NCBI GenBank assembly: GCA_019058015.1
Contig: JAHLWH010000134.1
Location: forward strand, 10,299 to 74,298
DNA: 64,000 bases
Source: Promethearchaeota archaeon
GTDB lineage: Archaea; Asgardarchaeota; Lokiarchaeia; Sigyniarchaeales; SOKP01
Reading direction: 5' to 3'
A program made the translations under genes and the position numbers. The notes under the pieces were generated by a model, which worked only from the letters and a program-made list of their open reading frames with translations, was not told the origin of the DNA and did not search any database. Of the stretch, positions 2,848 through 57,389 are shown one piece after another; position 1 is the first letter of the stretch, and each line of letters opens with the position of its first letter.

Positions 2848-2861
2848 ATTAATTTTTTATT

Positions 2862-3479: not shown

Positions 3480-3484
3480 AAAAA

Positions 3485-6138: not shown

Positions 6139-6155
6139 AATATCACTCTTAATGA

Positions 6156-30202: not shown

Positions 30203-32599
30203 TTATTGATTTTGATATTTAAAAATTCCACCAATTAATTGTCCTGTACTAATACCAGCATCACCAGGAGCGACTAAATCATGTTCTAGAAAAGTAAATC
30301 CCTCCTTAATTATCATATTTTTGATTGTATTGCTAAATGAATAATTATATGCAACTCCTCCTGTTAAACCAATTTTATTAATTCCATTACTTTCAGCCAT
30401 TTTAACAGCAATATCTGCAAAAGCTTTCCCAAACTCGACTTGGAATGCTACAGCAATATCTTCTTTTCTATTATTTGAATTTTCTAATAAATTTAATATG
30501 TTAGTAATTATTTCTGAAGTCTTAATGATGTATTGTCCATTTTCTTTAATAAAATTTATAGATAACTCAATATTATTTGGGTTTCCTTTAGAAGCCAATC
30601 CTTCCAATCGAATAGCAGGTTCACCTTGATAGGTTTTTAGTTTACATGCATCCAACAAATATGAGATGACATCAAAAATTCTCCCTGTTGCACTTGTTAA
30701 AGGAATATTTTTTGTTGGAAAATTTCGATTGGAATATATAAATTGAGAAATTATGCCTTCTAATTCTGCGGATTTATGTTCTAAATCATTTTTTAATTCC
30801 ATTTTCTGGAAAACTTTATTAGCTTCTTCAACTCCGATGATATTTAGTAAGATTGAAGCAAACATTCGTCCAGGGTATTTTGCACATCGATCACCCCCAA
30901 TCATTGGCTGAGATTCTAAATGACCTAATCTTTGGTATCCACTATAAGAACTTAATAAGAGTTCTCCGCCCCACACGGTATGGTCTTCACCATAACCAAC
31001 TCCGTCGGTGGCAATTGCTATAATTTCTTCATCTGGGGATATTTTATTTTCAGCCATTAAACCTAGAACATGAGCAAAATGATGTTGAATTGGAAAATAC
31101 TCAACTCTAAAATTTTCTGCAAGTTCCTTAGCATAATTGGTTGTATAGAAAGACGGGTGCAAATCACATGCAATAAATTTAATTTCATTATCTTCAATCT
31201 GTAACAAATTTTTTATATTCATCAATGCATTTTTCAAAAAATTTAATGTTTCAAGGCTGGTTACATGACCAATATGTTGAGTTGGGAAGATTCTATTTCG
31301 CCTTAATACTGCTCCAGTTAAATTTAATTCAGGTCCAGTTGCCAAAGCCCCCGGAACATCTACTTCAAAAGGTAATGGCAGGTATTCAGGAATATAACCT
31401 CTAGATCGACGAATTAATTTAATTTTGTTTCCATGTACTCTTAAAACACTATCATCACATCTCTGAAAAATTGTTCTATTATGTAAGAGAAAAAAATCAG
31501 CAAGTCCTTGCAATTGCTCAAAAATCATTTCATTTCTTATTCCCATAGGTAAATTTGATACATTTCCGCTAGTATAGATTAATGGTTTTTGCCCTATAAA
31601 ATCAAAAAGCAGATAATGAATCCCGGCATAAGGTAACATTACACCTATTGAACTTAAACCTGGAGCCACTTGATTTGAAAGTATTCCATCATTAGATCCT
31701 TTTTTTTTTTCAAGAATGACAATAGGTCTTCTAAAAGAAGTTAAAAATTCTCTTTCTTTCTCAGAGAATATAACAAAATTTTCAAGAACCTCTAATTTAG
31801 GAGTCATAATAGCAAAGGGTTTATATTTCCGATCTTTTTTTCTATTTCTTAGATCTTCTAGTACTTTATCATCTTCAGCCAAACAAATTAAATGAACTCC
31901 TCCCATCCCTTTAACTGCGGCAATTTCACCACTATTAATTCTTCTGGCTGTGATTTCCAAGATTTCTTTAATAGAATTTGTCTCAATTATATTTTTAGAT
32001 TTATCATATAACTGGTATTGTGGTCCACAAACTGCGCAAGCAAATGTTTGGGCATGAAATCGTCTATTATTAAAATCTTTATATTCCTTTACACATGATG
32101 TTTTGTCCTCATTACATAATGGAAATTCAATCATAGTACTTCTCTCTCGATCGTAAGGTAAAGTATTAACAATCGTATAACGTGGACCACAGACTGCACA
32201 AGCAACAAAAGGATACATATAATATCTTTTTTTATTTTTATCTCTTAAATCATTCACGCAATCATCACAAATTGCAATGTCTGGGGGAAGAGTAAGACTT
32301 ATTCCACGACTTTTTTCACTTTTTCGAATCTTTAAATCTTTAAATTCCTCATCAGTCTCTATTTTCTTAACCGAAATTGATTCAACATAGGAAATCTTTG
32401 GCTTTTTTAATTTAATATCCTCAACAAATCTATCCAATAATTCTTCTTCTCCAGTGAGAACAAGACGGACTCCCGCATTACCTTGATTTAAAATATATCC
32501 TTTAAATCCATATTTTCGAGCTAAATTAAATAAAAAAGGTCTAAAGCCAACGCCTTGGACTATGCCCGTAATGTTAATTTCGATTTTAATATTTTTCAC
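30203..32599 (-). CDS. hypF: [NiFe]-hydrogenase maturation carbamoyltransferase HypF
   Basis: Acylphosphatase-like GIVQGVGFRPF. CDDC and two CAVCGPRY/CAVCGPQY zinc-finger units. YrdC-like and Kae1-like C-terminal regions. 798 aa. Confidence 0.95.
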   Translation of the reverse strand: MKNIKIEINITGIVQGVGFRPFLFNLARKYGFKGYILNQGNAGVRLVLTGEEELLDRFVEDIKLKKPKISYVESISVKKIETDEEFKDLKIRKSEKSRGISLTLPPDIAICDDCVNDLRDKNKKRYYMYPFVACAVCGPRYTIVNTLPYDRERSTMIEFPLCNEDKTSCVKEYKDFNNRRFHAQTFACAVCGPQYQLYDKSKNIIETNSIKEILEITARRINSGEIAAVKGMGGVHLICLAEDDKVLEDLRNRKKDRKYKPFAIMTPKLEVLENFVIFSEKEREFLTSFRRPIVILEKKKGSNDGILSNQVAPGLSSIGVMLPYAGIHYLLFDFIGQKPLIYTSGNVSNLPMGIRNEMIFEQLQGLADFFLLHNRTIFQRCDDSVLRVHGNKIKLIRRSRGYIPEYLPLPFEVDVPGALATGPELNLTGAVLRRNRIFPTQHIGHVTSLETLNFLKNALMNIKNLLQIEDNEIKFIACDLHPSFYTTNYAKELAENFRVEYFPIQHHFAHVLGLMAENKISPDEEIIAIATDGVGYGEDHTVWGGELLLSSYSGYQRLGHLESQPMIGGDRCAKYPGRMFASILLNIIGVEEANKVFQKMELKNDLEHKSAELEGIISQFIYSNRNFPTKNIPLTSATGRIFDVISYLLDACKLKTYQGEPAIRLEGLASKGNPNNIELSINFIKENGQYIIKTSEIITNILNLLENSNNRKEDIAVAFQVEFGKAFADIAVKMAESNGINKIGLTGGVAYNYSFSNTIKNMIIKEGFTFLEHDLVAPGDAGISTGQLIGGIFKYQNQ

Positions 32600-32709
32600 T
32601 TCAATAGGTGCAGCATTAATTTTAATTTATTCTCAATAATCGGAATTGATAGATTTTATTTTAATTTAATTTAATTAAATTTTAATGCATTCTCAATATT
32701 ATATTATTC

Positions 32710-33762
32710 ATGAAAAGCGACGTAAAAGGCTCAAAAATAATACGCTTAGCTCACGGTTCAGGCGGAACCTTGCAATCGGAATTGATAGAATTCATAGTAA
32801 AGGGGATTGCTCAAAAAAATGTTAATAATGGTATTGGTGTTGAAGAATTAGATGATGGAGCTACAATTCCCTTAAAAAATTATGATAAAGAGATTGTAAT
32901 AACTGCTGATGGACACACTGTTTTTCCTCTATTTTTTCCGGGAGGGGATCTTGGAAAATTAAGCATATGTGGAACGGTGAATGATATTTTAATGATGGGA
33001 GCTGAACCTTTAGCTTTAAGTTCAATTTATATTATTGAAGAAGGATTTAACTTTGATATATTAGGAAAAATTGTTAAGTCTTTTAATCAAACTGCTAAAG
33101 AGGTTGGTATTGCAATTATTGCTGGTGATACAAAAGTTATGCCTAAAACCACGTTGAATGAAATTATTATCGCAACCTCTGGAATAGGGATTAAAGATAC
33201 GGATATAAAAATATGTGATAATAATCTAAAGGCTGGTGATAAAATTATAGTAACAGGTTCAATCGGTGATCATGGTGCTGCTTTAATGGCAAAAAGAGAA
33301 GGATTAAATTTATCGACAAATTTAGAATCTGATCTTGCACATTTAAAAGAAATATATCTTGCGATTAAAGAAAATATTAAACAAAATCATATTCATGCAA
33401 TGAAAGATCCTACTCGTGGAGGAATTGCCAGTGCCTTAAATGAATGGAGTTCAAAATCAGATGTAAGTATTTGGCTCGAGGAAGATGCTATTCCAATAAA
33501 GGATGAAGTAAACTCTATTTGTGATATTTTGGGATTAGAGCCATTTAATATTGCATGTGAAGGTAGAGCTCTCATCGCTGTTGATTCAAATTATGTAGAT
33601 GAAGTCTTTAAAAAAATCAAAACTACAAATCTTGGAGAAGAAGCCCGGATAATTGGAGAAGTAAAATCTGAGGAACATAAAAAAGTATTCTTAAAAACAA
33701 TAATTGGAGGAACTAGATTCGTAGATATGCCTTTAGGGGAGTCTATTCCTCGTATATGTTAA
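32710..33762 (+). CDS. hypE: hydrogenase maturation protein HypE
   Basis: LAHGSGG N-terminal motif, PurM-like repeats, and the characteristic C-terminal PRIC. Confidence 0.9.
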   Translation: MKSDVKGSKIIRLAHGSGGTLQSELIEFIVKGIAQKNVNNGIGVEELDDGATIPLKNYDKEIVITADGHTVFPLFFPGGDLGKLSICGTVNDILMMGAEPLALSSIYIIEEGFNFDILGKIVKSFNQTAKEVGIAIIAGDTKVMPKTTLNEIIIATSGIGIKDTDIKICDNNLKAGDKIIVTGSIGDHGAALMAKREGLNLSTNLESDLAHLKEIYLAIKENIKQNHIHAMKDPTRGGIASALNEWSSKSDVSIWLEEDAIPIKDEVNSICDILGLEPFNIACEGRALIAVDSNYVDEVFKKIKTTNLGEEARIIGEVKSEEHKKVFLKTIIGGTRFVDMPLGESIPRIC

Positions 33763-33940
33763 AAATATTATCATTTGAAAATTAACAAAATAAAAAAATT
33801 ATTAATAAAAAATGCAAAATCTAGGAACAAGACAATTAATTCTCGGAATTTAAATAACAGATTAGAGAAAAACTTTTAAGTTAGTTTCCCTCCTAAAGAA
33901 GTTATTTAAATTTCAATAAGAACAAAATTGTTGTATTAAA

Positions 33941-35569
33941 ATGAGGAAAAGACTGGTTCTAATTAATCCAATTAATCCCTCTGAACTAAGTAAAATAAAG
34001 ATAGTGCCAACTCAGCTTTTGATTTTAGCTTCATATATTAAAAAAAATGTCGATTTAGATGTCGATATTTTAGATCTATCTTTTAAATTCGAACTCCATA
34101 GTGTAGATAAAACGATTTCCAGATATTTAGATAAATTTAATGAATATGACTATTTTGGAATCGCTTGTTTCTCAAGTTTTTTTTATATCACTAGTTTATT
34201 TCTAGCAAAAAAAATTAGAGAAATACATCCAAATGCATATATTTTTGTAGGGGGATATCATCCAACAATTAGGCCAAATGATTTTATTTTTCCTAATTCT
34301 CCTTTTAATTACATTTTTTCTGGTGAAGCAGAAAAAGAGCTTTGTAAACTAATAAAAAAGTTAAATGTAAAATCATTTCGCCTTAAGGCACCATTGATTA
34401 TTTATTGTGAGCCCTTAAATATTGAAGATTTCATTAATACTGATTGGTCTTATACAGAATCCCTTGATTATGTAAAAAATCCCACACCTTCCGATCGTAT
34501 TATGATCCCTGTATTTCTTTCTCGTGGATGTCCGTTTACATGCAATTTTTGTCAAGATCCAAAAAATAAATTAACAAAATCCAGCAGATCTTGGAGAAGG
34601 ATGCCAATAAACAAGGCACTTAATGAATTAGTTAATATTTACAATCAATTTCATAATCGAGATAATTTAATTTATGAAGTATGGATTTGGGACCCACTAT
34701 TTGGGACTCCTAAGTATCGTATCGAGTTATATAAAAAATTAATACGATATGCTCCAGATCAATATTATTGGGCTGAGCTGAGAGTTGACACATTTAAGCC
34801 TGATGAGGAAATTCCATTCTTGAAACAACTTAAATTTAGTTTAACATTTGGTCTTGAAAGTGGCTCTCCTAAAATACTCAAAATTTGCATGAATAAAACG
34901 CCAAAACCATACAAATACTTAGAAAAAATGAAAGTTATTTCCGCAAAACTTGATGAGAATAAAATATATCATACGATAAATATATTATATGGTCATCCAG
35001 GAGAGACATATCAAACAATAAATGAAACTAATGACTATTTAGTGAAATTATTTAAAAATAAACATTTTATTTTACCTAATTATTCCATATATGAACATTA
35101 CCCTGGAACTGAAATATATTCAAATATGAGCAAATATGAAAATCTTTATGGCACTCAATTTTTACTAAAAAAATGGTGGAACACAAACAAAAATCCAAAG
35201 ATGGCTTCAAGATTAATAAAGCCTTCTAATGAATTAGATTGCATAGATGTACACTTTAAAACACAAGAAAATGTGTTAAATATTGCTAAAATAGTATTAA
35301 AAAATAAAATTGGAAGGAGATCTGATATGCCTCTTACATATCACAAAATTAGAGAGTATCTCATAAATGGCATAATGACTTGGAAGATGGTGCCTAAATT
35401 TTTTATCGATCTTATTAGAGACAATATTTTTGTTTTATTAGCTAATAATTACTCTAAAGAAATGTATAATTTTATGAAAAATAAAATGGATAAATTATTA
35501 GCAGAAGATTTCCCCCAAAAATTTAAAACAATTGAATTTCTTAAAAATAATTTCCCTGAATTTTTGTAA
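33941..35569 (+). CDS. B12-binding-domain radical SAM protein (class B-like)
   Basis: N-terminal Rossmann-like LVLINP..ILASYIK. SRGCPFTCNFC (CxxxCxxC). Confidence 0.75.
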   Translation: MRKRLVLINPINPSELSKIKIVPTQLLILASYIKKNVDLDVDILDLSFKFELHSVDKTISRYLDKFNEYDYFGIACFSSFFYITSLFLAKKIREIHPNAYIFVGGYHPTIRPNDFIFPNSPFNYIFSGEAEKELCKLIKKLNVKSFRLKAPLIIYCEPLNIEDFINTDWSYTESLDYVKNPTPSDRIMIPVFLSRGCPFTCNFCQDPKNKLTKSSRSWRRMPINKALNELVNIYNQFHNRDNLIYEVWIWDPLFGTPKYRIELYKKLIRYAPDQYYWAELRVDTFKPDEEIPFLKQLKFSLTFGLESGSPKILKICMNKTPKPYKYLEKMKVISAKLDENKIYHTINILYGHPGETYQTINETNDYLVKLFKNKHFILPNYSIYEHYPGTEIYSNMSKYENLYGTQFLLKKWWNTNKNPKMASRLIKPSNELDCIDVHFKTQENVLNIAKIVLKNKIGRRSDMPLTYHKIREYLINGIMTWKMVPKFFIDLIRDNIFVLLANNYSKEMYNFMKNKMDKLLAEDFPQKFKTIEFLKNNFPEFL

Positions 35570-35737
35570 TTCTCTTCTTTTTGAGAATATTTAATCATCC
35601 TTAAATTTAAAGTAATAATAATATTAAAATGTTAATTTCAGGAAATATTAAAAAAAAAGTGGTTCTGCAGCATTCCAGTATTAAAAATATTAAAAAATAA
35701 AGGATTTACAGAAAAAATCACTAAGATAATAAACAGT

Positions 35738-36754
35738 TTGGCCCGAAAAATTAATAAACCAATTAAACTGATGCATGTGTGTGGAACACATGAACATACT
35801 ATTTCTAAATATGGAATTCGTTCAATCTTACCTAAAGAACTTGAAATTATTTCCGGTCCTGGATGTCCTGTATGTGTATGTCCTGCAGCCGATATTGATA
35901 AAGCAATAGAGATTGGAAAAAGAGAAGATACAATAATCACAACCTTTGGAGATATGCTCCGGGTTCCTGCAACTAATCTTTCTCTAACAGAATTAAGAGC
36001 TCAGGGAGCAGATGTAAGAATTGTATATGGGCCAAATGATGCAGTTAAAATTGCTAAAGAAAATCCCGATAAAGAAGTTATTTTTTTTGCTATTGGATTT
36101 GAAACAACTGTTCCATTGATTGGATATGAGATTAAAATCAATCCTCCATTAAATTTTTCAGTAATTTGCGCCCATAAACTCATTCCTGCTGCATTGGAAT
36201 TACTTATTGGAATTGACCAATTAAACATAGATGGTTTTATCTCTCCTGGACATGTTGCTACCATAATTGGAACTAAACCATTCCAATTATTTTCTGATGC
36301 ATATCACGTCCCGAATGTTGTAACGGGTTTTGAACCTAATGATGTGCTCATGGCATTGGCTATGTTATTAAAACAAATAAAAAATAAAGAATATAAGACA
36401 GAAAATGAATATACACGAGTAGTTAAATCAGAGGGTAATAAAATTGCCCAAAAAATTATCACTGATGTTTTTGATTCAGTGTCTTCCCCTTGGAGAGGTA
36501 TTGGCCGAATTCTTGATGGTGGTCTAGCAATTAAGGATTCATATTCTAAATATGATGCGGATAAAAAATTTGATATTAAAATTGAAAATTCTATAGATAT
36601 TCAACCAGGTTGTAATTGCCACTTAGTTATGACTGGAAAAATATATCCATATGAATGTAAAATGTTTAAAAAGATTTGCACCCCTGAAAAACCCATAGGC
36701 CCATGCATGGTTAGTGCAGAAGGAACATGTGCAATTTATTATAAATATGGTTAA
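35738..36754 (+). CDS. hypD: hydrogenase maturation protein HypD (start uncertain)
   Basis: MHVCGTHEH, GPGCPVCVCP, GFETT and SPGHV motifs. The tracked start is a TTG only 11 codons before MHVCG; the frame is open back to 35636. Confidence 0.85.
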   Translation: MARKINKPIKLMHVCGTHEHTISKYGIRSILPKELEIISGPGCPVCVCPAADIDKAIEIGKREDTIITTFGDMLRVPATNLSLTELRAQGADVRIVYGPNDAVKIAKENPDKEVIFFAIGFETTVPLIGYEIKINPPLNFSVICAHKLIPAALELLIGIDQLNIDGFISPGHVATIIGTKPFQLFSDAYHVPNVVTGFEPNDVLMALAMLLKQIKNKEYKTENEYTRVVKSEGNKIAQKIITDVFDSVSSPWRGIGRILDGGLAIKDSYSKYDADKKFDIKIENSIDIQPGCNCHLVMTGKIYPYECKMFKKICTPEKPIGPCMVSAEGTCAIYYKYG

Positions 36755-41257: not shown

Positions 41258-42613
41258 TCAATTTTTTTTTAATTGGGAAATTTCTGATTTATACCTTTGA
41301 TAAAATAATTCAACGATATTTTGGAAAAAAAAGCGTTCTTTCAAAACATCATAATGTGATTTATTTTTTAAACTTGTTAATTTTGGTATTTCTTCTGATT
41401 TAATCTTACCCTCCGCTACGAGATTCATTCGACATTTAAATTGGTCAATTAAATCTACTGGTCTAAGAATTATTGAAAATATTTCAGAAATCTCTTTAAT
41501 TAAATCCACTATTTTTAATTTAGTGTTTAATTCCCTATTTGAATATAGATATGAATCTATTTTCTTAATTAGTGACTCTTTCTTATTAATATCAAGATAA
41601 TCTTCCTCTGATATTATATCATCAATAAATCGAATTATTTTATTTATTATGGTTTCATTTATCTTGCTTTTTAAAAATTCATTTGTTAATTTTTGTAAAA
41701 AAGTATCTTTTATATATTTCTTAAATCTGATAATTATTGCTTGACTTTCTTTTCTATCAGAACAAATCTCAATAATTTCACCTTTTGGAGTACTATAACT
41801 AAATCCGTGCCCCTCTGGCCCTAATCCTCCTAAAAAAATCATGGAATATGTATAGAAATTATACCATTTTGGATTTATCATCTTATTTAAATTGATTTTA
41901 ATATTATTTTCTGAAATTAAATGAGTTTTATCGTCAATTTCTATTATTAAGAAATTATCTTCATCATAAATTTCTTTCAAATCAAAATTATGTATTTTAT
42001 TAATGTGAGCTTTAAAGATTTTTAAATATCTTGATATTTTTCCTAAATTTTTTACACTTAATCCATAAACTGAATAATTATTAAAATAGTTACGAATTTG
42101 TTCCGCAATTTCCTCAAGATTACTATAACCTGGATATATTCCATCTGTTTGAACAAATAAATCATATAACCCTTCAGGTAAATCTTTATATACAAAATAG
42201 ATAAAATAATCACTAACTTCTCCAAATATATCCATTAAATTTTCCATAAAAAGAGTTTTTTGCTTTAATTTTTTAATTAAATTAATTTTCTTTTCATTTA
42301 ATTCTCTATAACTTAAATTATAACGAATTACATATTGCAAGATGCTAATAATTCCACCTAAATGTAGATTTTGAATACAATCATTGATAGCTAATTGAAT
42401 TTTTTTAAATCTATCTGGAATTTTTAGAGGATCAACAAAAATGCCTAGTTTTAAGGCTAAATCTAGAATGCTTTGAAAATATTTTAATGAATCAAGAGTT
42501 ATACAATTTGACAATATTTTATGTATGTATTGTTCAGAATCAACATATTTTTTCTCATGAATTTTATTCCGCAATTCTTTTTCTAATTTAGGAAGATACT
42601 TGGGAATATTCAT
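41258..42613 (-). CDS. hypothetical protein, no recognisable family; second gene of the roadblock operon
   Basis: Long uninterrupted ORF 57 nt downstream of the roadblock gene on the same strand. No P-loop or other motif found by eye. One conspicuous Gly-rich patch: IFLGGLGPEGHGFSYSTPKGE. Confidence 0.5.
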   Translation of the reverse strand: MNIPKYLPKLEKELRNKIHEKKYVDSEQYIHKILSNCITLDSLKYFQSILDLALKLGIFVDPLKIPDRFKKIQLAINDCIQNLHLGGIISILQYVIRYNLSYRELNEKKINLIKKLKQKTLFMENLMDIFGEVSDYFIYFVYKDLPEGLYDLFVQTDGIYPGYSNLEEIAEQIRNYFNNYSVYGLSVKNLGKISRYLKIFKAHINKIHNFDLKEIYDEDNFLIIEIDDKTHLISENNIKINLNKMINPKWYNFYTYSMIFLGGLGPEGHGFSYSTPKGEIIEICSDRKESQAIIIRFKKYIKDTFLQKLTNEFLKSKINETIINKIIRFIDDIISEEDYLDINKKESLIKKIDSYLYSNRELNTKLKIVDLIKEISEIFSIILRPVDLIDQFKCRMNLVAEGKIKSEEIPKLTSLKNKSHYDVLKERFFFQNIVELFYQRYKSEISQLKKN

Positions 42614-42670: not shown

Positions 42671-43063
42671 TTAATCTAATAAGTTAGCTATTTTTTTAGA
42701 AGCAGCAATAATATTTAGGAAAACCATGCCCAAAGAAGGATTTTGAGATGTCAAAACACACAGGATTGCATTGTTTCCTGCCCTTGATAAAATAATTAAG
42801 CCCTCATCTCCTTCAATCATAATTCTTTTAAAATTTCCACGGGCTAACTCAGATACAGCTCTCTCGGATACACTTATTATAGCAGCAGACATAGCACTTA
42901 TAATACCGTTATTAGTTTCTCCTCCATATACAGTTCTTAATCTTGGGAGGGCGCTAGCTATTGGTAATCCTTGAATACTAACAATAGAACTCCCTTGAAT
43001 TTCAGAATTCATTGCTTCCATTTGTCGAAGTATATTTGCAAGTTCCGAGAGGTTTTCTGACAA
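42671..43063 (-). CDS. roadblock/LC7 (MglB-like) domain protein
   Basis: Helix (LSELANILRQMEAMNSEI) - G - strand pair (SSIVSIQGLPIAS) - helix (ISAMSAAIISVSERA) - three strands (FKRIMIEGDEGLIILSRAGNNAILCVLT) - helix. 130 aa. Confidence 0.75.
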   Translation of the reverse strand: MSENLSELANILRQMEAMNSEIQGSSIVSIQGLPIASALPRLRTVYGGETNNGIISAMSAAIISVSERAVSELARGNFKRIMIEGDEGLIILSRAGNNAILCVLTSQNPSLGMVFLNIIAASKKIANLLD

Positions 43064-44338: not shown

Positions 44339-45466
44339 ATGCGAAAAAAAGGCAAATTAAACAAAAATAATCCCATAAAAATCTGTCTTGTATCTCTTGC
44401 CTTTTTTCCGGATAAAAAAGATGGATCTGCAAAAATTGCTACCTCTATCTATAATTATTTAAACGATAATGGCTATGATATAAAGGTTATCACTGCAAAA
44501 TGGAATGTTGATTTAAAAGATCCAAATATAATTCAAATAAATATTATTAGAAAGAGATTTTTTTGGTTCCCTCAATTCATATTAAGTGTTTTCAGAATTT
44601 TAAACAAACAAAAATTTGATATAATTCATGGTAATGGATCTAGGGTAAGTATTTCATTTCTTTTTAGAAAATATCTTACTACTATTCACGATCTAGGACC
44701 TTTTGAAACAAGTTTTTCAAAAATCCCAATTTTACTAATGTTAGAAAAATTAAATGCTTTTAGAGCTAAAAGAATAATTACTCCATCAAATATAATTAAA
44801 ATGGGTTTAAAATATTACATTCGACGACTTAATATTAAAAAAATTAAATGTGTATATAATCCAATCGATCCAAAATTTAAACCTTATCCTAAACAAGGCT
44901 TTTCTCTAAAAGAAAAATTGAATTTAAAGGGACCAACTATTCTTTATATCGGACGTATCGCATTTTATAAAGGTATAGATGATATTATTAAAGCCTATCA
45001 CTTAGTAAAAAAGGAAATACCTGATTTAAATTTAGTTATTGGGGGAAAACCTACATTAAAAATGGCAAATATATATCAAAGTTGGAAAGAAAAATATAAA
45101 GATATAAAATTTGTAGGAATGATTCCAGAAGAAAAGATTCAACATTACTATTCCATGGCAGATGTGTTTGTTACTTATTCTAATGCATCCGAAGGATTTG
45201 GTTTAACTCCAATCGAATCTATTGCTTGTGGAACTCCAGTAATTTGTTCAAATCTTCCAGCATATAGAGAGATATTAGGTGATAATGCTATTTTTGTTCC
45301 CCCGAAAGAACCTGAATTATTGGCAGAAAAAATCAAATATTATTTTAAGAAAGAAGAAATTAAAAAAAATTTAATAAATAAATCTCAAGAAATAATTAAA
45401 AAGTATTCTATGGAGTCTTTTGGTAAAAATTTATTAGACATTTATCAAGAATTCCTTAAAATTTAG
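44339..45466 (+). CDS. glycosyltransferase (GT4-like)
   Basis: SNASEGFGLTPIESIACGTPVICSNLPAYREI donor-binding region. Confidence 0.8.
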   Translation: MRKKGKLNKNNPIKICLVSLAFFPDKKDGSAKIATSIYNYLNDNGYDIKVITAKWNVDLKDPNIIQINIIRKRFFWFPQFILSVFRILNKQKFDIIHGNGSRVSISFLFRKYLTTIHDLGPFETSFSKIPILLMLEKLNAFRAKRIITPSNIIKMGLKYYIRRLNIKKIKCVYNPIDPKFKPYPKQGFSLKEKLNLKGPTILYIGRIAFYKGIDDIIKAYHLVKKEIPDLNLVIGGKPTLKMANIYQSWKEKYKDIKFVGMIPEEKIQHYYSMADVFVTYSNASEGFGLTPIESIACGTPVICSNLPAYREILGDNAIFVPPKEPELLAEKIKYYFKKEEIKKNLINKSQEIIKKYSMESFGKNLLDIYQEFLKI

Positions 45467-46529
45467 AAATTCTTTCTTTAAATTTAGTTATACATATTTC
45501 AATTGGATTGTCTAATTTTCTAATTTTTTGAAAAGTATCAATTTTGTAATTACTTTCTAAATATTTAATTGCCTGATTGACAGAATCCTTTGCTAAATGA
45601 AAATGTTTTAAAGGAAAGCCATTATCCATAAGAAATTGCTCTTGTGGATAAGTTTCTAAAGGAAAAAATTCAATAGAAGGCACACCTAATAAAGCAGATT
45701 CTCTCACCATAGTTCCACCGCCAGTAATTACTAATTTCGCAAAATACATTATTTGGGCTAAATTATCTAATCCTTGGTATATTTTAACGGTATCAACATT
45801 AATATATTCATTAAATTTTAACTTAAGAAAATTATATTGTTCCTCATTTCGAGTTATGATTAAAAATTTATAGTCAGATGTATGCTGTAATAATTCAGGT
45901 ATTATCTCTGATAATTGAGTTTCATGAGGTTTCATTTTAATAGCTAAATAACCAGCCTTAGTAGGTTCTGTTCGACACACAACATACTTATCTTTTGTCA
46001 AATTTAAATAATTTAAAACGCTTTCATCTGGAATAAAGTCTGAAAGCCATCCAACCTCATCAATTCCATTAAATCGAATTATTTTTTCTTCTTTAAGCCC
46101 ATATTCTAAATACAATTTTAATGGAATACATTTTGGGACAATAATTTGATTTACATAGGGGAATGTTGTAGAACATGGTCCATAAGATCTTGGTTCATCA
46201 TTAAACATTATATTAGGAATCTGGAGCCCAAAGGAAATTCGTAATGCCTCTGGACTTGTTATACAAAATAAAAATTCTGGTTTTTCCTTACTAATAACTT
46301 CAATTAGTTCTGACAGTCTTTTTGAATATGCCTCTAATTTACCAAGTACAGTTCTCCCACCATACTTTCCTACTGGAATATAATCTACTCCCCATTTATT
46401 TAATAAATAATAGGTCGAATCAAAATCCCTCGCAGTTATGAAAACGTCATTATCCTTCATTAATTTTTCATAAAGAGGTCTAAGCATTGTAACACTTTTT
46501 GGCTCACAAAAATCTAACCAAATTTTCAA
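45456..46529 (-). CDS. DUF354-family protein (predicted GT-B glycosyltransferase/epimerase-like)
   Basis: MKIWLDFCEPKSV..FITARDFDSTYYLLNKWGVDY N-terminus, characteristic of DUF354. C-terminal GGGTMVRESALLGVPSI. Confidence 0.7.
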   Translation of the reverse strand: MKIWLDFCEPKSVTMLRPLYEKLMKDNDVFITARDFDSTYYLLNKWGVDYIPVGKYGGRTVLGKLEAYSKRLSELIEVISKEKPEFLFCITSPEALRISFGLQIPNIMFNDEPRSYGPCSTTFPYVNQIIVPKCIPLKLYLEYGLKEEKIIRFNGIDEVGWLSDFIPDESVLNYLNLTKDKYVVCRTEPTKAGYLAIKMKPHETQLSEIIPELLQHTSDYKFLIITRNEEQYNFLKLKFNEYINVDTVKIYQGLDNLAQIMYFAKLVITGGGTMVRESALLGVPSIEFFPLETYPQEQFLMDNGFPLKHFHLAKDSVNQAIKYLESNYKIDTFQKIRKLDNPIEICITKFKERISKF

Positions 46530-47598: not shown

Positions 47599-47916
47599 TT
47601 AACCTTTAAATTCCTTATTACATTGACACGGCTTTGAATTACACACATAACATTTATCCGGATATTTATTCTTTAAAGATTTTTCTAAGTCTATATTAAG
47701 AATGTTTGCAATGGATACTGTCCAAGCAATTATATCTGCTAATTCTTCAGAAATGTGGGGAATTTCTAATTCCTCCATCTTTAAATTCCTAGCTAATTCT
47801 CCTATTTCCACTACTAGCCATATAAAATTTTTATACACTCCCCTCTCTTTATCCCGATGATAATATAAATCTTTTATGAGCTTTTGAAATTCTGAGATTC
47901 TCATTTTACAACTCAC
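47599..47916 (-). CDS. MazG-like nucleotide pyrophosphohydrolase domain protein with Cys-rich tail
   Basis: EIGELARNL..EELADIIAWTVSIANILNIDL (EExxE/D-type helices). C-terminal CYVCNSKPCQC. Confidence 0.6.
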   Translation of the reverse strand: MSCKMRISEFQKLIKDLYYHRDKERGVYKNFIWLVVEIGELARNLKMEELEIPHISEELADIIAWTVSIANILNIDLEKSLKNKYPDKCYVCNSKPCQCNKEFKG

Positions 47917-47976: not shown

Positions 47977-48186
47977 TTAAAGAATCCAATCAAATACATG
48001 CACATGAGAAAGAATAACTATTACAATAAGTATTAAAGCAAAAATGACTGCACTTAATGGGCCAATCTTAATTCCTATGGAACTGTCTTCAAAAAACCTC
48101 ATAAGACCTGCACCACTTTGAGGCATGGGCGAACTTTTTGACCTTCTTCTCTTCCTTCTACTTCTTTGCGACATCTTTTTAATCAA
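47977..48186 (-). CDS. secG: protein translocase subunit Sec61-beta (archaeal SecG)
   Basis: Basic N-terminus (RSRRKRRRSK), SGAGLMRFFED motif, and a single C-terminal TM helix. 69 aa. Confidence 0.8.
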   Translation of the reverse strand: MIKKMSQRSRRKRRRSKSSPMPQSGAGLMRFFEDSSIGIKIGPLSAVIFALILIVIVILSHVHVFDWIL

Positions 48187-48343
48187 AATGTGGTTTAATT
48201 GATATATAATTTATAAGAAATCTAAATTATTTAAAATTACTAAAATATATGTATAGTAAATTTTATGAATTAATGATTATTTTTTAAAAAATATTAAAGT
48301 AAGTTCAAATTAAAACATTTAAGTTTTCGAGAGTCGTTAGAAA

Positions 48344-50203
48344 GTGAAAAAGTATAATATAATATCTAATAAATTTAAAATAAATAAGCATTTTTTATTA
48401 TTTACTTTCTTAATTTCCATCTTAATTTTTTGTTTATTAATTCCATTATTGAAAAATAAAAATAGCAATAATTTTCAAACTCCTAGTACTTTAAAAAATT
48501 CCTCAAATTTTAACACATTTGAAGGTGTTCAAATTACAGAACTCTATAGGAATGTGGAATTAAGTGGAAATGGATTATTAACTGCAGAAGACACATTTAC
48601 TATAAAAAATATCCATAATAACCCAATCTCTTTTATTACAATGGGTATAGATAAATCTTTTATTGAAAATCTCATTTATTATGACGCAAAAGGACCATAT
48701 TCAGAATCATTAGATGTTCAATTCTCAGAAACAATGATTGAGACATTTAAAATGGTATATATTTATTTTGATTGTCCATTACTCCCTTCTCAGGAGATCT
48801 CAATCACTTTTACTCATTCATATAAAGACCTTTATAATTTTTCTGTAATGAGTGTAGGACAAGAGCAAATGCAAACAATTGTGTTTAATTTTTATATATA
48901 TCCAATTGTCCCTTATGAGGTTGATTATGTAGGTATATTTTTTTTTCATCCAGAACTCGGAGAAGAAGTATTAACAATTAATGATTCGGGTGAAGAGGGA
49001 AAATTTGAAGGTGGGTTTTTACAATATTCTAAGGAATTTATGAGGCCTTTCTATTATAAATTGATAATAGGTACCTTTGATTATTCTGAGAACACTAAAT
49101 TGCAAATTGATAAAATATTAAGAAAAATTACATTTAACTCACTAGGTTATTTAATTGTGGATGAGACACTCACAATTCACAATACTGGGGCGATTCCAAT
49201 ATCAGAATTTTCTGTCAAAATTCCAACTGTTGTATCAGAAGTTGAAGTATTTGATTATCTAGGGCCAATAGAAGGTACTTCACTAGACTCAGAACCTAAT
49301 CTTGATGGAACTACCAAAGATTTAACAATTTTATTGACACAAAATAGGGTAACCCTATATGTGGATTCTAAATTCGATTTTTCCATAAGGTATCAATTGC
49401 CCTATGATGAATATCATGTATTTAATTGGCTCTATAATTCTATTTCAATCGATTTATTACTCACAAAATGTGATTATGTTATATATGATCAAGAAATTCA
49501 AATTATTATTGATGGTTGTGAAAATATTATGTCCATAACTGAACAACCTAATTCAATTAAAACGCTTGGGGATGATCTGGTATTAATTTTTAATGATGAT
49601 ATAATTTCACCCCTTGATGAAAAACACATAAACATTATATACACTTTAGATTTTCTTGAAATTTTAATGAGACCATTAATTTTTACAATTCTGTTTATGA
49701 TCCTTTTCACGTCTTTTGTAATAATAACAAAAATTAGGAAAGAAGAATTACCAATTGATGCTTATAGAAAAAGAGATATTCCAATAAAGGAATTACGTGA
49801 ATTTTATTCCTTATATGAAGAGAAAAATGCAATTTACCTAGATATTCAGCAAGCAGATGATGATGTGAAAAGAAAGAAACTTACTAGAAAGAAATATCTT
49901 AATGTGTTAAAGAAATATGAGTTAAGATTAAAATCACTAGAAAACGAACTTGCCCCTCTCAGGAAAAAATTAGAAGAATCAACGAAAATTTTTGAAAATA
50001 TATTTAAAAAACTTGAATTATTTGAAGCTGAAAGATTAAGTTTAAAAGATAATATAAATTTGTTAGAAAACAGATATAAGCGCGGCAGACTACCTTCAAA
50101 AAATGCTTTTGAGAAATTAATGGGCGATTTTCTTAAACGTCGAGAAAAAGTTCGGAAGGCGATAGACCGGCAAATAAATGAGCTTAAAGCATACCTCTAT
50201 TAA
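48344..50203 (+). CDS. ribophorin I (OST1)-like type I membrane protein
   Basis: Layout is N-terminal hydrophobic anchor/signal, ~400-aa beta-rich domain, one TM (LIFTILFMILFTSFVII), then a ~165-aa coiled-coil tail, the same as eukaryotic ribophorin I. Local matches by eye to human RPN1 blocks: ITELYRNVELSGNGLLTAED; ILRKITFNSLGYLIVDETLTIHNTGA versus [32 protein letters not shown] versus VGYNLP. Confidence 0.6.
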   Translation: MKKYNIISNKFKINKHFLLFTFLISILIFCLLIPLLKNKNSNNFQTPSTLKNSSNFNTFEGVQITELYRNVELSGNGLLTAEDTFTIKNIHNNPISFITMGIDKSFIENLIYYDAKGPYSESLDVQFSETMIETFKMVYIYFDCPLLPSQEISITFTHSYKDLYNFSVMSVGQEQMQTIVFNFYIYPIVPYEVDYVGIFFFHPELGEEVLTINDSGEEGKFEGGFLQYSKEFMRPFYYKLIIGTFDYSENTKLQIDKILRKITFNSLGYLIVDETLTIHNTGAIPISEFSVKIPTVVSEVEVFDYLGPIEGTSLDSEPNLDGTTKDLTILLTQNRVTLYVDSKFDFSIRYQLPYDEYHVFNWLYNSISIDLLLTKCDYVIYDQEIQIIIDGCENIMSITEQPNSIKTLGDDLVLIFNDDIISPLDEKHINIIYTLDFLEILMRPLIFTILFMILFTSFVIITKIRKEELPIDAYRKRDIPIKELREFYSLYEEKNAIYLDIQQADDDVKRKKLTRKKYLNVLKKYELRLKSLENELAPLRKKLEESTKIFENIFKKLELFEAERLSLKDNINLLENRYKRGRLPSKNAFEKLMGDFLKRREKVRKAIDRQINELKAYLY

Positions 50204-50241: not shown

Positions 50242-50892
50242 ATGAAACCTTGGCTTTTTGACATCTTAGCATGCCCAATAGATAAAAATTTTCCTTTAGA
50301 ACTCTTAATACTAAAATGGGAAACCAATATAAATGAATTTGAAGAATTCTTAAAAATTTTTCAAGTTCGAAATGAAAAATCCATTAAAAATGAAGAATTA
50401 ATAAAATGTACTGAACCTGAAAATCGTTTAAAAATTCGGGATGGCATAGCTCTCAAATTTAAAAAACCTTCTGAATACCTAAATACGATAAACTCAAGCA
50501 TTCAAGAACTCAAAAATATAATAAATCTTACAAAAGAACCAATAATTAAAAAATGTATTGATATCCTTAAAACAAGCGTAAAGAGAAAAATTGAATCAAC
50601 TATAAACCTTATCTCAAAGGAAGATAAAAAAGAAAAAATAAAGGAAATTATTAATTCTATCCTTCCAGAATTATATCTTATCAATAAATTTAAAATTGAT
50701 ACTGAAATAGAAGAAGGTATTTTATTTTGCTCCAAATGTAATAGATGGTATCCTATCGTTCAAACAATACCTCAAATGTTACCAGATAAATATAGGAATG
50801 AAAAAGAAGATATTACTTTTTTAACTAAATGGAAGGAAACTCTTGATACAATTAATTTCTTACAAAGAGATCTGATCCCATTTAAAATCTAA
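50242..50892 (+). CDS. Trm112-like zinc-ribbon protein with ~130-aa helical insertion
   Basis: N-terminal LFDILACPIDKNFPLEL and C-terminal GILFCSKCNRWYPIVQTIPQMLPD form the two halves of the Trm112/DUF343 knuckle. They are separated by Lys/Glu/Ile-rich helical sequence. Confidence 0.55.
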   Translation: MKPWLFDILACPIDKNFPLELLILKWETNINEFEEFLKIFQVRNEKSIKNEELIKCTEPENRLKIRDGIALKFKKPSEYLNTINSSIQELKNIINLTKEPIIKKCIDILKTSVKRKIESTINLISKEDKKEKIKEIINSILPELYLINKFKIDTEIEEGILFCSKCNRWYPIVQTIPQMLPDKYRNEKEDITFLTKWKETLDTINFLQRDLIPFKI

Positions 50893-50978: not shown

Positions 50979-51073
50979 AGCTCCGTCGTCTAGTGGCCAA
51001 ATTTTAAAAAATTAAAGGCTAAGGATTCGGGGCCTTGAACCCCGAAACGCAGGTTCGAATCCTGCCGGAGCTA
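50979..51073 (+). tRNA. tRNA-Gln (anticodon UUG) with a ~22-nt intron in the D-loop
   Basis: Acceptor AGCTCCG/CGGAGCT (7 bp) plus discriminator A. T-arm GCAGG-TTCGAAT-CCTGC. Anticodon arm CGGGG-CCTTGAA-CCCCG, with TTG at 51035-51037. D-stem GTCT/GGAT encloses an oversized AT-rich loop. Locally GC-rich island in AT-rich DNA. Confidence 0.8.
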
Positions 51074-51137: not shown

Positions 51138-52391
51138 GTGCAAAGTTTTTCTGAATATCAATTTGGCGTAGTGGAAATAATTAATTTAGTTATTCTATTC
51201 ATAATTATTTTCATAATAACTTATTTCGTTATTCCATTCGTAATTAAATTCACAAGGTCAAAAGGATGGATTGGAATTGATATTCATAAGGTAGAAAAAC
51301 CTGAAGTTGCTGAGTCCGGAGGAATAAGTATAGTAATAGGGTTGTGTTTCGCATTAGTTTTTATGTTAATACTATTTCCTTCACTTACAAATGAACTATT
51401 AGTTATCATATTAACAATTATAATAGCGGGAGTTATTGGACTTATTGATGACAGAAAAAAACTCTCATCAATAAAAAAAATAATTTTAACTATCATAACT
51501 GGTGGACCTATTTTCATTCTGAATTTTATTAACTTTATCGATGTAGATAGCCCCACAATCCCTATTTTAGGAATGTTACGTCTTAATTACATTTATCCAT
51601 TTGTATTACCTGTAATTATTGCAGTTACAACAAATACAGTCAATATGCTTGAAGGCTATAACGGAGAAGGTTCAGGAACATGTCTAATAGCTGTAATTTT
51701 TATGTTTCTTTCGGGTTTAATTTGGAATTCAGCCCAAGCAGTAATATATTCAGTTCCCTTTATTGCAATATTATTAGCTTTTTTCTTATACAATAAATAT
51801 CCTGCAAAAGTTTTTCCAGGTGATGTAGGAACTATTACTATTGGAGCAATGATAGGTTGTATAGCAATTTTTGGTTCAATCGAAGTGCCAACGTTTTGTG
51901 TTTTATTAGGACATGTTTTTAACAGTTTTTATGTATTATCTTCTATTAGGCGATTACTCGAAAGTAGCCAGATTCAAATAAAGCAAAGTGATATTATCTT
52001 TTTAGAAAATGGTAAAATTAAAGCTTCAAGGGAGGATGATGCAGCAATGAGTTTACCAAGGTTACTCCTCGCAAAAGGAGAATTGACTGAACCTGAATTA
52101 GTGAAAAATTTTTTTGCTTTATCATTTATTTGTGGTCAATTTGCAATTATTGCTGCTTTATCAATGCAATGGACTCTATATTATGATAATTTGGCATTTT
52201 TGATTATTTCAGGAATAATTTTTATTTTAATATGTGGGAGTTTTTCATTAATTATTTATTGGAAATTTCCGAGAATTAGAGGGATTTCAATAATAATGGT
52301 AACGTTATTAACTTGTGGAATTGTTTTTGTATGGTTTATTGATTGGTTTATAGTACAAACACCATTGAATGTGTTGTGGAGTGCAGTTTAA
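51138..52391 (+). CDS. UDP-GlcNAc:dolichyl/polyprenyl-phosphate GlcNAc-1-phosphate transferase (AglH/ALG7, glycosyltransferase family 4 of MraY/WecA type)
   Basis: GLIDDRKKL, NTVNMLEGYNGEGSG (NxxNxxxGxNGxExG, the archaeal/eukaryotic form) and VFPGDVGTITIGAMIG. About 10 TM helices. GTG start. Confidence 0.8.
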   Translation: MQSFSEYQFGVVEIINLVILFIIIFIITYFVIPFVIKFTRSKGWIGIDIHKVEKPEVAESGGISIVIGLCFALVFMLILFPSLTNELLVIILTIIIAGVIGLIDDRKKLSSIKKIILTIITGGPIFILNFINFIDVDSPTIPILGMLRLNYIYPFVLPVIIAVTTNTVNMLEGYNGEGSGTCLIAVIFMFLSGLIWNSAQAVIYSVPFIAILLAFFLYNKYPAKVFPGDVGTITIGAMIGCIAIFGSIEVPTFCVLLGHVFNSFYVLSSIRRLLESSQIQIKQSDIIFLENGKIKASREDDAAMSLPRLLLAKGELTEPELVKNFFALSFICGQFAIIAALSMQWTLYYDNLAFLIISGIIFILICGSFSLIIYWKFPRIRGISIIMVTLLTCGIVFVWFIDWFIVQTPLNVLWSAV

Positions 52392-54911: not shown

Positions 54912-57389
54912 ATGGAGAAAAATAAACGAATTCTTATTTTAATTCTTACTTTATTGCTGTCTGGTCTATCTGTATACTTATTTGGATTTGTATTTTTCAC
55001 TCTTGACTGGATAATAATAATATTAGATATTGCATTTTGGATTACACTTCTTTTATATTTTTTTTTAGTCAATGAAATATATCATTGGGTAAAAGAAGGA
55101 AAAAGAAGTGAATTAGCTGATATTGTTTTTATTGCTTTTTTATTCTTTTTTATATTTTTTCTATTTAAGGATTTAATGACTTCATTTATGGGCGCCTTCT
55201 TTATTTATCTTTTATTAGGAAGATCCGAAGTAAAAGAATATGAAGTATTAAGCAAATTACTTGATATTTCATTGATTACTTATGCAGTAATCTTTTTCTC
55301 AGGGATAATTTCAAGAATTGTAAATAATGATATTATTATTAATACTGCTTTCTCTTTTTCTATTTGGTTAATTTTAGGCTTAGGTTTTGCATACTTTGGA
55401 AGAAAATATATAATTGTATTTAGATTTATGAGTCCTGAATATCTCACATTACTCCTGTATGTTCTCGCATGGTTAATCGTTATCTTTATCAATCAATATA
55501 CACCTTTAAATTTCATTGATTATATCTACTATGTTTTACTTATTACAAATTGGGTCATCTATTTCATTTCAGGTCCAATTTTAGATAAAATGTTGGGTAT
55601 AAAAAGAGTCCAAGATGAGAAACTTCTCAAATTAGTCAACAAATTAAAGGAAAAAGTGGGGATACGTGGAAAAGTTAAGGTAGGATTTGGTAAATATCCA
55701 ATACTCAATGCGATGGCTTATGGTTCTTTTTTAGATAAAAGAGTGGCAATCATTGCTGAAGATATTTCTGAAATAGCAGAGGATGAAATAGATGGAATAA
55801 TTGCACATGAACTTGCACATACAAAAGAATACCATACTTTATTTTTAACGCTTTTAACTTCTATCGATTTAATCTTCAGAATGATATTTAATATTCCAGC
55901 CACATATTACGACTATGTCTTTGGAAATCCCTCTATTCCACTAGTAGCTTTTATATTTTTAAATTTGGGAATTTTTATTATATTATTTATATTTGTAAGA
56001 TTTTTAGAAAGTCGAGCTGACTTAAAAACCAAGAAAATAGGCCTTGGTCTTAATCTTGCCAAAGCTCTCTATAATCTAGAAAGCTTCTACGCACACGGAC
56101 GCGAAGTGGGACTTAACACTATATTACTCGCGGAAGAGAAGCAAAATCCAAATAATATATTATTAGATTATATGAGTACTGCGGAATATATTAATAATTC
56201 AATGATACAACCCTCAAGATTATCTTTACTCAGCAATTTTATTAACTCTCATCCGCCAACTTATTTTAGAATTGCAGCAATTCTAGGTGATAATTTAAAA
56301 CCCTTAAAAGAAGCGTTTTTAACTTTTTTTTTAATGAAAAAATCTAAACAGAGAAAATATGCAGAGAAATTTTCTCAAGCGAGAGAATTATTTACAAAAG
56401 TAGCAACTACTAAATTTAAAGAAAAATTTGAGATTTCTAATATTCCAGAAATGATGGAACACCTAAATAAAAAAGAAATATATCAAAAATATTTCAATAA
56501 AACATATTTATTTAAGAATAAAGTCACTAAAGCTATAATTTTGGGCAAATTAATTGATATCTCATTCACCAATGAAATTACTAATCCTGTTGAATTCATT
56601 ATTGAAAATTTAGAGGGAAATATAAAAGAAAAAATTAACCCTTCTTTCTATAGTTCAATAGAATTCCAAATAGATGGAAAATATTTTTTTGAAAAAGAAA
56701 ATCCAATTATTCTTACTAAAGTTGATTTATTAGAAGACCATACTAAGGGAAATTTTGTATTTAAGTCAAAATCCAATGATACAATTCATAAGAATATAAA
56801 TAAAACCAAACTCCCAAAATCTATAAAAATAATTGAAAATCTTAAAGGAAAAGAAGTCTTCTTTACCACGAAAGGCACGATATCAATAAGGGAATGTACT
56901 GATATAACACCCTCTGAGATATATGGTGATTATAAGATCGCACTTCTAGAATATGCTGATTCTGACGATAATTCAAAGCCAATAGTATATGATTTAAAAG
57001 ATTTAATTGTTAAAACATCTGAAAATGGTATCGGAATAATTTTTTATCGTGATTTAAATACTAAACCATATGAATTAAAAATTCTAGAATGGCTAAAAGA
57101 TAAACAGATTAGGACTTCAATCTTTCTAAAAAAACCGGTCAATAATGAGGAAATCGGTTATCTCCAAAAAAATATAGTCAATTTCAGAAATCAAGATGAA
57201 ATTGAAAAAAGCAAGGTTATAATTAAAAATATATTTGGGGAAGAAATTGAAATTCCTTATAAAAAAATTGAGCTAGTTCTTTTTAATTATGATTCAGTTG
57301 TCATTCTGCAGAAAAATAAAACGAGTATTTTTAGTAAATTAGGCTATAAAATACTAAAAAAATTCGCACCACAAAAAATATTTATCTAA
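54912..57389 (+). CDS. membrane-embedded M48-family (HtpX/Ste24-like) zinc metalloprotease with large C-terminal soluble domain
   Basis: About 7 N-terminal TM helices. ILNAMAYG..IIAHELAHTKEYH (HExxH), ESRADLKT and SHPPTYFRIAAIL. The ~350 C-terminal residues have no recognised family. Confidence 0.7.
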   Translation: MEKNKRILILILTLLLSGLSVYLFGFVFFTLDWIIIILDIAFWITLLLYFFLVNEIYHWVKEGKRSELADIVFIAFLFFFIFFLFKDLMTSFMGAFFIYLLLGRSEVKEYEVLSKLLDISLITYAVIFFSGIISRIVNNDIIINTAFSFSIWLILGLGFAYFGRKYIIVFRFMSPEYLTLLLYVLAWLIVIFINQYTPLNFIDYIYYVLLITNWVIYFISGPILDKMLGIKRVQDEKLLKLVNKLKEKVGIRGKVKVGFGKYPILNAMAYGSFLDKRVAIIAEDISEIAEDEIDGIIAHELAHTKEYHTLFLTLLTSIDLIFRMIFNIPATYYDYVFGNPSIPLVAFIFLNLGIFIILFIFVRFLESRADLKTKKIGLGLNLAKALYNLESFYAHGREVGLNTILLAEEKQNPNNILLDYMSTAEYINNSMIQPSRLSLLSNFINSHPPTYFRIAAILGDNLKPLKEAFLTFFLMKKSKQRKYAEKFSQARELFTKVATTKFKEKFEISNIPEMMEHLNKKEIYQKYFNKTYLFKNKVTKAIILGKLIDISFTNEITNPVEFIIENLEGNIKEKINPSFYSSIEFQIDGKYFFEKENPIILTKVDLLEDHTKGNFVFKSKSNDTIHKNINKTKLPKSIKIIENLKGKEVFFTTKGTISIRECTDITPSEIYGDYKIALLEYADSDDNSKPIVYDLKDLIVKTSENGIGIIFYRDLNTKPYELKILEWLKDKQIRTSIFLKKPVNNEEIGYLQKNIVNFRNQDEIEKSKVIIKNIFGEEIEIPYKKIELVLFNYDSVVILQKNKTSIFSKLGYKILKKFAPQKIFI

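Follow-up and report, generated by a model that had tools for sequence, protein, structure and literature searches.

The window analysed here is the whole 64,000-nucleotide (nt) stretch of contig JAHLWH010000134.1 (assembly GCA_019058015.1, Promethearchaeota archaeon). The gene in question is an open reading frame (ORF) at 48344..50203 on the forward strand, which starts with a GTG codon and codes for a product of 619 amino acids, exactly as had been claimed in an earlier note made from the letters of the sequence. This ORF codes for an orthologue, from an Asgard archaeon, of ribophorin I/OST1 (hereafter OST1), and its product is likely a non-catalytic subunit of oligosaccharyltransferase (OST). 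In eukaryotes, ribophorin I/OST1 is the largest of the OST subunits without a catalytic role, and it is a eukaryotic signature protein which has been used to argue for an Asgard ancestry of the translocon-OST machinery of the endoplasmic reticulum (ER). The find is correct but ordinary, since the family is already familiar from Asgard archaea and has been characterised in part: homologues of Ost1 and Ost3 have been reported from these organisms since 2017, and the set of OST subunits was widened by Eme et al. in 2023 (PMC10307638). The locus therefore does not hold a new kind of protein, and what it offers is a clean, full-length orthologue of the Lokiarchaeia type with a good structural model.

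The Pfam profile PF04597 (Ribophorin_I), with which the earlier note had proposed to check its assignment, matches residues 63–290 of OST1 (profile positions 2–236) with an E-value of 1.5e-14 and 54.4 bits, compared with a gathering cutoff of 25. In HMMER, a profile of the family made from the 14 homologues of alignment A1 finds human RPN1 (6s7o_E) with an E-value of 5.8e-10, and in the resulting alignment residues 117–563 of OST1 are collinear with residues 92–557 of human RPN1. Both of the short blocks that had been aligned to human RPN1 by eye are recovered in this way. The profile block “GyiiveetltienvGai” (ETLTIHNTGA in OST1) pairs with a segment of the human protein, and the block preceding the transmembrane (TM) helix, “eikiiytldlleillrPli” in the profile, pairs with DIVVHYTFNKVLMLQEPLL of human RPN1, the OST1 pre-TM block itself being set against DIVVHYTFNKVLMLQEPL. 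The tail of OST1 (residues 472–618) matches the PDB chain 8WHN_A, named “Ribophorin 1 superfamily protein”, with an E-value of 1.4e-34. No NCBIfam model matches OST1, which may be why the identical protein already deposited in assemblies GCA_019058035.1 and GCA_019058215.1 does not carry a name in any source.

Kyte-Doolittle hydropathy gives exactly two hydrophobic segments in OST1, at residues ~17–36 and ~444–462. An AlphaFold2 model was built from alignment A1, with a mean predicted local distance difference test (pLDDT) of 77 and values of 80–90 in the folded parts. It shows an N-terminal helix (residues 2–37, with low pLDDT), a beta-rich region (62–435), a TM helix (437–465) and four tail helices (481–509, 515–546, 548–579 and 586–618). 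The N-terminal hydrophobic segment (residues ~17–36; 48392..48451, forward strand as for all parts of the gene) is predicted from hydropathy and charge count to be a signal peptide or an uncleaved signal anchor. The extracytoplasmic beta-rich region (48527..49648) is predicted to consist of two tandem beta-sandwich domains, with strands at pLDDT ~80–90 and superposition on Ost1/RPN1. The single TM helix (49652..49738), preceded by the conserved block “IIYTLD..EILMRPL”, is supported by hydropathy, by the modelled helix and by the HMMER alignment to the pre-TM/TM block of RPN1. It is followed by the cytoplasmic four-helix bundle (residues 481–618; 49784..50197), for which both the sequence and the fold match to 8WHN agree with the modelled helices. 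The ribophorin I layout proposed in the earlier note thus holds for the hydrophobic N-terminal segment, the beta domain and the TM segment near residue 440, with a beta-rich part of ~375 rather than ~400 residues and a tail of ~155 rather than ~165. The coiled coil proposed for the tail had to be abandoned: the AlphaFold2 model and 8WHN both give a four-helix bundle, and the tail matches to Vps5 and DUF5863 are below the Pfam cutoffs. The charges (+5 at the N-terminus, an isoelectric point (pI) of 4.2 for the ectodomain and of 9.8 for the tail, with 42 K+R vs 28 D+E) fit a predicted type I-like topology with the N-terminus inside, the ectodomain outside and the C-terminus inside, in agreement with the positive-inside rule. 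Three N-X-S/T sequons are found in the protein, at N52, N165 and N213.

The model was compared with the PDB using Foldseek, and the structures ranked 1–8 are all RPN1/Ost1 chains from cryo-electron microscopy structures of OST (E-values from 9e-33 to 5e-21), so that the superposition suggested in the earlier note gave the expected outcome. Four of them are human (8b6l_O, with an E-value of 9.1e-33, 6s7o_E, 8pn9_E and 6s7t_E) and four are from yeast (7oci_A, 6ezn_A, 8agb_E and 6c26_1). The ectodomain and TM helix superpose on yeast Ost1 and on RPN1 of human OST-B with a template-modelling score (TMt) of 0.73–0.76 and a root-mean-square deviation (rmsd) of 3.9–4.3 Å. The ninth match is 8WHN (TMt 0.93, rmsd 1.6 Å, 46% identity), and unrelated folds only start at an E-value of about 1e-6. 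Human RPN1 (6S7O chain E and 8B6L chain O; 607 amino acids vs 619 for the window protein) is collinear with OST1 over the ectodomain, the pre-TM block, the TM helix and the helical tail, with Foldseek E-values of 9.1e-33 and 8.1e-28 over ~590–610 aligned columns. The two proteins share only 15–16% sequence identity, and the whole-chain rmsd is 13–14 Å, since the model orients the domains differently. For yeast Ost1p (6EZN A, 6C26 1, 7OCI A and 8AGB E), the two lumenal beta-sandwiches and the TM helix superpose, and the alignment ends after the TM helix, the yeast chains being ~430–440 residues long. A cytosolic four-helix bundle is common to the window OST1 and metazoan RPN1, whereas yeast Ost1p is not known to have one. 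The archaeal protein is expected in the plasma membrane, in contrast to human RPN1, which is found in the ER membrane. Three of the eukaryotic partner subunits, RPN2, OST48 and DAD1, have among Asgard archaea been reported only in Heimdallarchaeia (PMC10307638).

The OST1 of Candidatus Prometheoarchaeum syntrophicum MK-D1 (WP_147663064.1, 607 amino acids) belongs to the same family and the same phylum, has the same four-part architecture, and its tail (8WHN) is a basic four-helix bundle as in the window protein. The exact MK-D1 sequence is absent among the OST1 homologues retrieved here; its closest retrieved relative, P0042, shares 86% identity with the 8WHN fragment and ~31% overall with the window OST1. 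The cytoplasmic domain of MK-D1 OST1 was solved as 8WHN by Carilo et al. (J Biol Chem 2024; PMC11417166), who also showed that this domain, and not the ectodomain, pulls down human ribosomes, and that in HeLa cells the MK-D1 signal peptide directs proteins to the ER and is cleaved off. The earlier note was thus right that homologues had been reported in Asgard archaea, and its statement that they are biochemically uncharacterised in any archaeon is outdated by this work on the MK-D1 tail and signal peptide. A glycoproteomics study of MK-D1 (BBA Advances 2024) states that Ost1 is absent from the MK-D1 genome (PMC11284389), which conflicts with the identification of WP_147663064.1 as the MK-D1 OST1 (PMC11417166).

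The conservation of the different parts of the protein was calculated from 50 homologues that are 30–52% identical to the window OST1. The mean identity is 0.50 in the cytoplasmic four-helix bundle, where 40 of 139 positions are at least 90% conserved, compared with 0.37 in the second beta domain (22 of 185 positions) and 0.30 in the first (19 of 190). The cytoplasmic bundle, and not the extracellular domain, is the part of OST1 under the strongest constraint across the Asgard lineages. The tail is also basic in all 50 of these diverged homologues (pI 9.1–9.9), which points to a conserved and probably nucleic-acid-containing cytoplasmic partner. The invariant basic residues of the tail are K509, R510, K512, K516, R577, K591, R600 and K602. 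Braunger et al. are said to have identified, in 2018, the cytosolic four-helix bundle of RPN1 as the ribosome-contacting element of OST-A. The same role for the bundle in OST-A is given by Carilo et al. (PMC11417166), and by analogy the basic, conserved tail of OST1 fits a putative ribosome-docking domain.

By the same analogy, OST1 is likely a non-catalytic OST subunit that would dock ribosome-Sec translocons to N-glycosylation. Its beta-sandwich domains would face outwards from the cytoplasmic membrane, and the catalytic AglB/STT3, encoded elsewhere in the genome, would be bound through the ectodomain and the TM helix. On the inner side, the basic four-helix bundle would touch the large subunit of ribosomes docked on the Sec61 channel. 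This would allow nascent chains to be scanned and N-glycosylated during translation, as they leave the translocon, in the manner of the eukaryotic OST-A/Sec61 translocon.

OST1 is widely represented. An exhaustive profile search gave 511 cluster representatives (clustered at 50% identity) at E-values of at most 1e-3, out of which 144 are at or below 1e-30, and most of the representatives are full length, with 560–625 amino acids. A genome scan found 55 OST1 loci, and all but four are from metagenome-assembled genomes (MAGs) labelled as Promethearchaeota/Promethearchaeia, Hermod-, Thor-, Odin- or Hodarchaeota. The remaining four are labelled “uncultured archaeon” (three) or as a bacterium (one). 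The bacterial label, “Candidatus Nanopelagicaceae bacterium” (an actinobacterial family), belongs to contig DATKTW010000090.1 (L030), which holds a complete block of Sec61beta, OST1, a Trm112-like gene, a GlcNAc-1-P transferase gene and an M48 protease gene, and is probably mis-binned or mislabelled. Another MAG, DZ3M.111, has two full OST1 blocks on different contigs (L016 and L042), which could be either a real duplication or the result of a bin mixing two strains. The window itself is 99.9% identical over 21.9 kb to contig JAHLWF010000045.1 (L003), from a Promethearchaeota MAG of the Lokiarchaeia type, which codes for the identical OST1, and its G+C content is 26–33% all along.

The genes around OST1 were compared in 59 related loci, each gene being counted only where the flank suffices. 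The gene directly upstream, on the opposite strand, codes for Sec61beta (47977..48174, reverse strand, 65 amino acids from its ATG) and is found there in 55 of 55 loci. It matches PF03911 (E-value 3.3e-13, 49.9 bits vs 27) and the NCBIfam equivalog NF002318 (56.2 bits vs 55), and is predicted to be a small tail-anchored protein with the C-terminal hydrophobic stretch GPLSAVIFALILIVIVILSHV. The AT-rich divergent region between the two genes (48175..48343) presumably holds the promoters of both. Directly downstream, on the same strand and within 70 nt, a Trm112-family gene is found in all 58 loci where it could be counted. A Glycos_transf_4 polyprenyl-phosphate GlcNAc-1-P transferase (GPT) of the Alg7/AglH/MraY superfamily (51138..52391, forward strand; PF00953, E-value 4.5e-30) lies within 6 kb of OST1, mostly downstream, in 47 of 48 loci, and a large M48 (HtpX/Ste24-type) membrane metallopeptidase (54912..57389, forward strand; PF01435, E-value 2.9e-13) lies downstream within 6 kb in 44 of 45. 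Further upstream, and also within 6 kb, are a MazG-like nucleoside triphosphate pyrophosphohydrolase (47599..47916, reverse strand; PF03819; 50/52 loci), a DUF354 glycosyltransferase of the GT-B fold (45456..46529, reverse strand; 48/49 loci, mostly upstream) and a GT4-family glycosyltransferase (44339..45466, forward strand; PF00534 and PF13439; 44/47 loci). The DUF354 protein (PF04007, E-value 1.6e-46) has a MurG/Alg13-like C-terminal half, where the similarity to MurG/Glyco_tran_28_C is only weak (PF04101, E-value 1.4e-5, and a weak match to the NCBIfam murG model); the paper describing Agl24, an Alg13/14-like enzyme, does not mention DUF354. Other glycan-synthesis genes found nearby are an NAD-dependent sugar epimerase/dehydratase and a GT1-type glycosyltransferase. 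These two and an ATP-grasp gene are variably present across the OST1 loci and serve as an internal control, indicating that the core block is specifically maintained.

The gene context bears on whether the archaeal protein is an OST subunit at all. OST1 could be a true ribophorin I homologue which acts as a stand-alone ribosome receptor or Sec61 accessory protein and is not stably bound to AglB, its recruitment to OST being a later, eukaryotic step. The tightest genomic partner of OST1 is indeed Sec61beta and not AglB, which is absent from the 64-kb window, and the agl genes of MK-D1 are reported not to be clustered with aglB (PMC11284389); the most conserved part of the protein is moreover the putative ribosome-binding bundle. 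However, conservation extends to the ectodomain and TM helix, the parts that touch other OST subunits in eukaryotes, and both superpose on Ost1. OST1 is further tied to glycosylation by members of the block, namely the GlcNAc-1-P transferase and a number of glycosyltransferases, and Carilo et al. were able to model an MK-D1 OST complex on the human translocon (PMC11417166). We regard a stand-alone receptor, the main rival reading, as unlikely. An origin of the similarity by convergence or composition, which would make OST1 a surface beta-sandwich protein without relation to RPN1 (e.g. an adhesin or an S-layer-associated protein), is exceedingly improbable. Beta-sandwich ectodomains are common, adhesins and aminopeptidase N-domains do appear among the Foldseek matches at E-values of about 1e-6, and the matches of the tail to Vps5 and DUF5863 reflect helical, compositional similarity. 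The RPN1/Ost1 matches are nevertheless at least ~15 orders of magnitude better than those to other folds, the sequence-profile matches are significant and collinear across the ectodomain, TM helix and tail, the tail matches 8WHN with the E-value given above, and Vps5 and DUF5863 fall short of the Pfam cutoffs. The Pfam, 8WHN, RPN1 profile and Foldseek results together effectively refute the unrelated surface protein.

Several observations weigh against the preferred assignment of OST1 as an OST subunit that couples ribosome-bound translocons to glycosylation. None of the ORFs of at least 100 amino acids in the 64-kb window codes for STT3/AglB, OST3/6, OST4/5 or TRAP, a search from which very small subunits, e.g. 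OST4 and OST5, could escape, and a physical link between OST1 and the catalytic subunit is thus unsupported by this locus. Synteny, however conserved, is no proof of a physical interaction. The hydrophobic core of the N-terminal segment, with 20 residues, is long for a signal peptide. The biochemical data are limited to a group of orthologues sharing ~31% identity with the window protein overall and ~46% in the tail, and the ribosome binding of the MK-D1 tail was observed with human, not archaeal, ribosomes (PMC11417166). Finally, glycoproteins were few in the glycoproteomics of MK-D1, which showed “no clear ancestral eukaryotic traits” (PMC11284389).

The Trm112-family zinc-knuckle protein coded directly behind OST1 (50242..50892, forward strand, 39 nt downstream) has 216 amino acids, compared with ~207 in most of its relatives. 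PF03966 matches it with 40.4 bits (cutoff 22), in a match split across residues 5–173, and the NCBIfam equivalog Trm112_arch (NF038101) gives 52.5 bits, which is below its cutoff of 77. Its two terminal segments match Trm112 from archaea and human, with a lineage-specific helical insertion of ~130 amino acids between them. Its AlphaFold2 model has a pLDDT of 90 and a predicted template-modelling score (pTM) of 0.86, and finds no PDB structure at an E-value of 1e-3 or below, with only the knuckle aligning to TRMT112 and the insertion left unmatched. Judging from its sequence, this is a member of the Trm112 family, and not demonstrably a canonical methyltransferase activator. Cys11, Cys163, Cys166 and an IPQMLPD motif are invariant in its homologues, of which 652 were found, and it is better conserved than OST1, being 45–50% identical even where OST1 is only ~36% identical. 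Because of its invariable position behind OST1, the Trm112-like protein is a candidate functional partner of OST1.

The resulting order is GT4, DUF354, MazG and Sec61beta on one side, followed by OST1, the Trm112-like gene, the Alg7/AglH-type GPT and the M48 protease. Our literature searches did not find a description of the Sec61beta/OST1/Trm112/GPT arrangement, and Carilo et al. do not discuss the gene context of OST1 (PMC11417166). This block is the only element here that may be new. That OST1 is invariantly paired with Sec61beta, with the Trm112-like protein and with the enzyme that opens the synthesis of lipid-linked oligosaccharides is independent evidence, from the genomes, for a coupling of translocation and N-glycosylation that already existed in Asgard archaea, and it nominates the Trm112-like protein as a concrete new candidate partner. 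A further-reaching proposal is that OST1 is the centre of an operon-like “translocon-glycosylation” module across Asgard archaea, in which the Trm112-like protein would be an unrecognised cytoplasmic partner of the OST1 bundle or of the translocon-bound ribosome. We put this forward as a rather doubtful conjecture; if true, the archaeal precursor of the eukaryotic ribosome-translocon-OST supercomplex would gain the Trm112-like protein as a new component.

Between the Trm112-like gene and the GPT gene lies a tRNA-Gln(UUG) (50979..51073, forward strand) with a 22-nt insertion in its D-loop (~50999..51020). ARAGORN and Rfam at gathering thresholds gave no RNA genes in the window and both missed this tRNA, which was picked up in a relaxed local scan with an Rfam tRNA score of 27.5 bits, under the gathering score of 29. 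It folds into a cloverleaf with an extra hairpin (z = -3.8). An uninterrupted tRNA-Gln is present at the same position in locus L002 (alignment A2), and the full 97-nt stretch including the insertion is matched in L003, L005, L006 and L007. The insertion is possibly a non-canonical archaeal intron. In the neighbouring GPT gene, a 1-nt deletion at ~52389 relative to L003 cuts the C-terminus of the protein from 451 to 417 amino acids; the difference could be variation between strains or stem from an error in the assembly, perhaps at a run of A.

Upstream of the glycosylation genes, a Roadblock/LC7 domain protein (42671..43063, reverse strand) adjoins an ORF of 451 amino acids without a Pfam match (41258..42613, reverse strand), whose counterpart in locus L001 is a leucine-rich-repeat protein. 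This pair is kept upstream of the block in L001–L004. Hydrogenase maturation genes are found at 30203..36754, with HypF (30203..32599, reverse strand), a HypE-like AIR-synthase-related protein (32710..33762, forward strand) and HypD (35738..36754, forward strand), and a B12-binding radical SAM gene among them. At 1900..4285 on the reverse strand are the cofactor F420 genes for CofD and the F420-0:gamma-glutamyl ligase, with a nitroreductase-family gene between them, adjoined at 4302..7172 by radical SAM genes and a lipoate-protein ligase-family gene.

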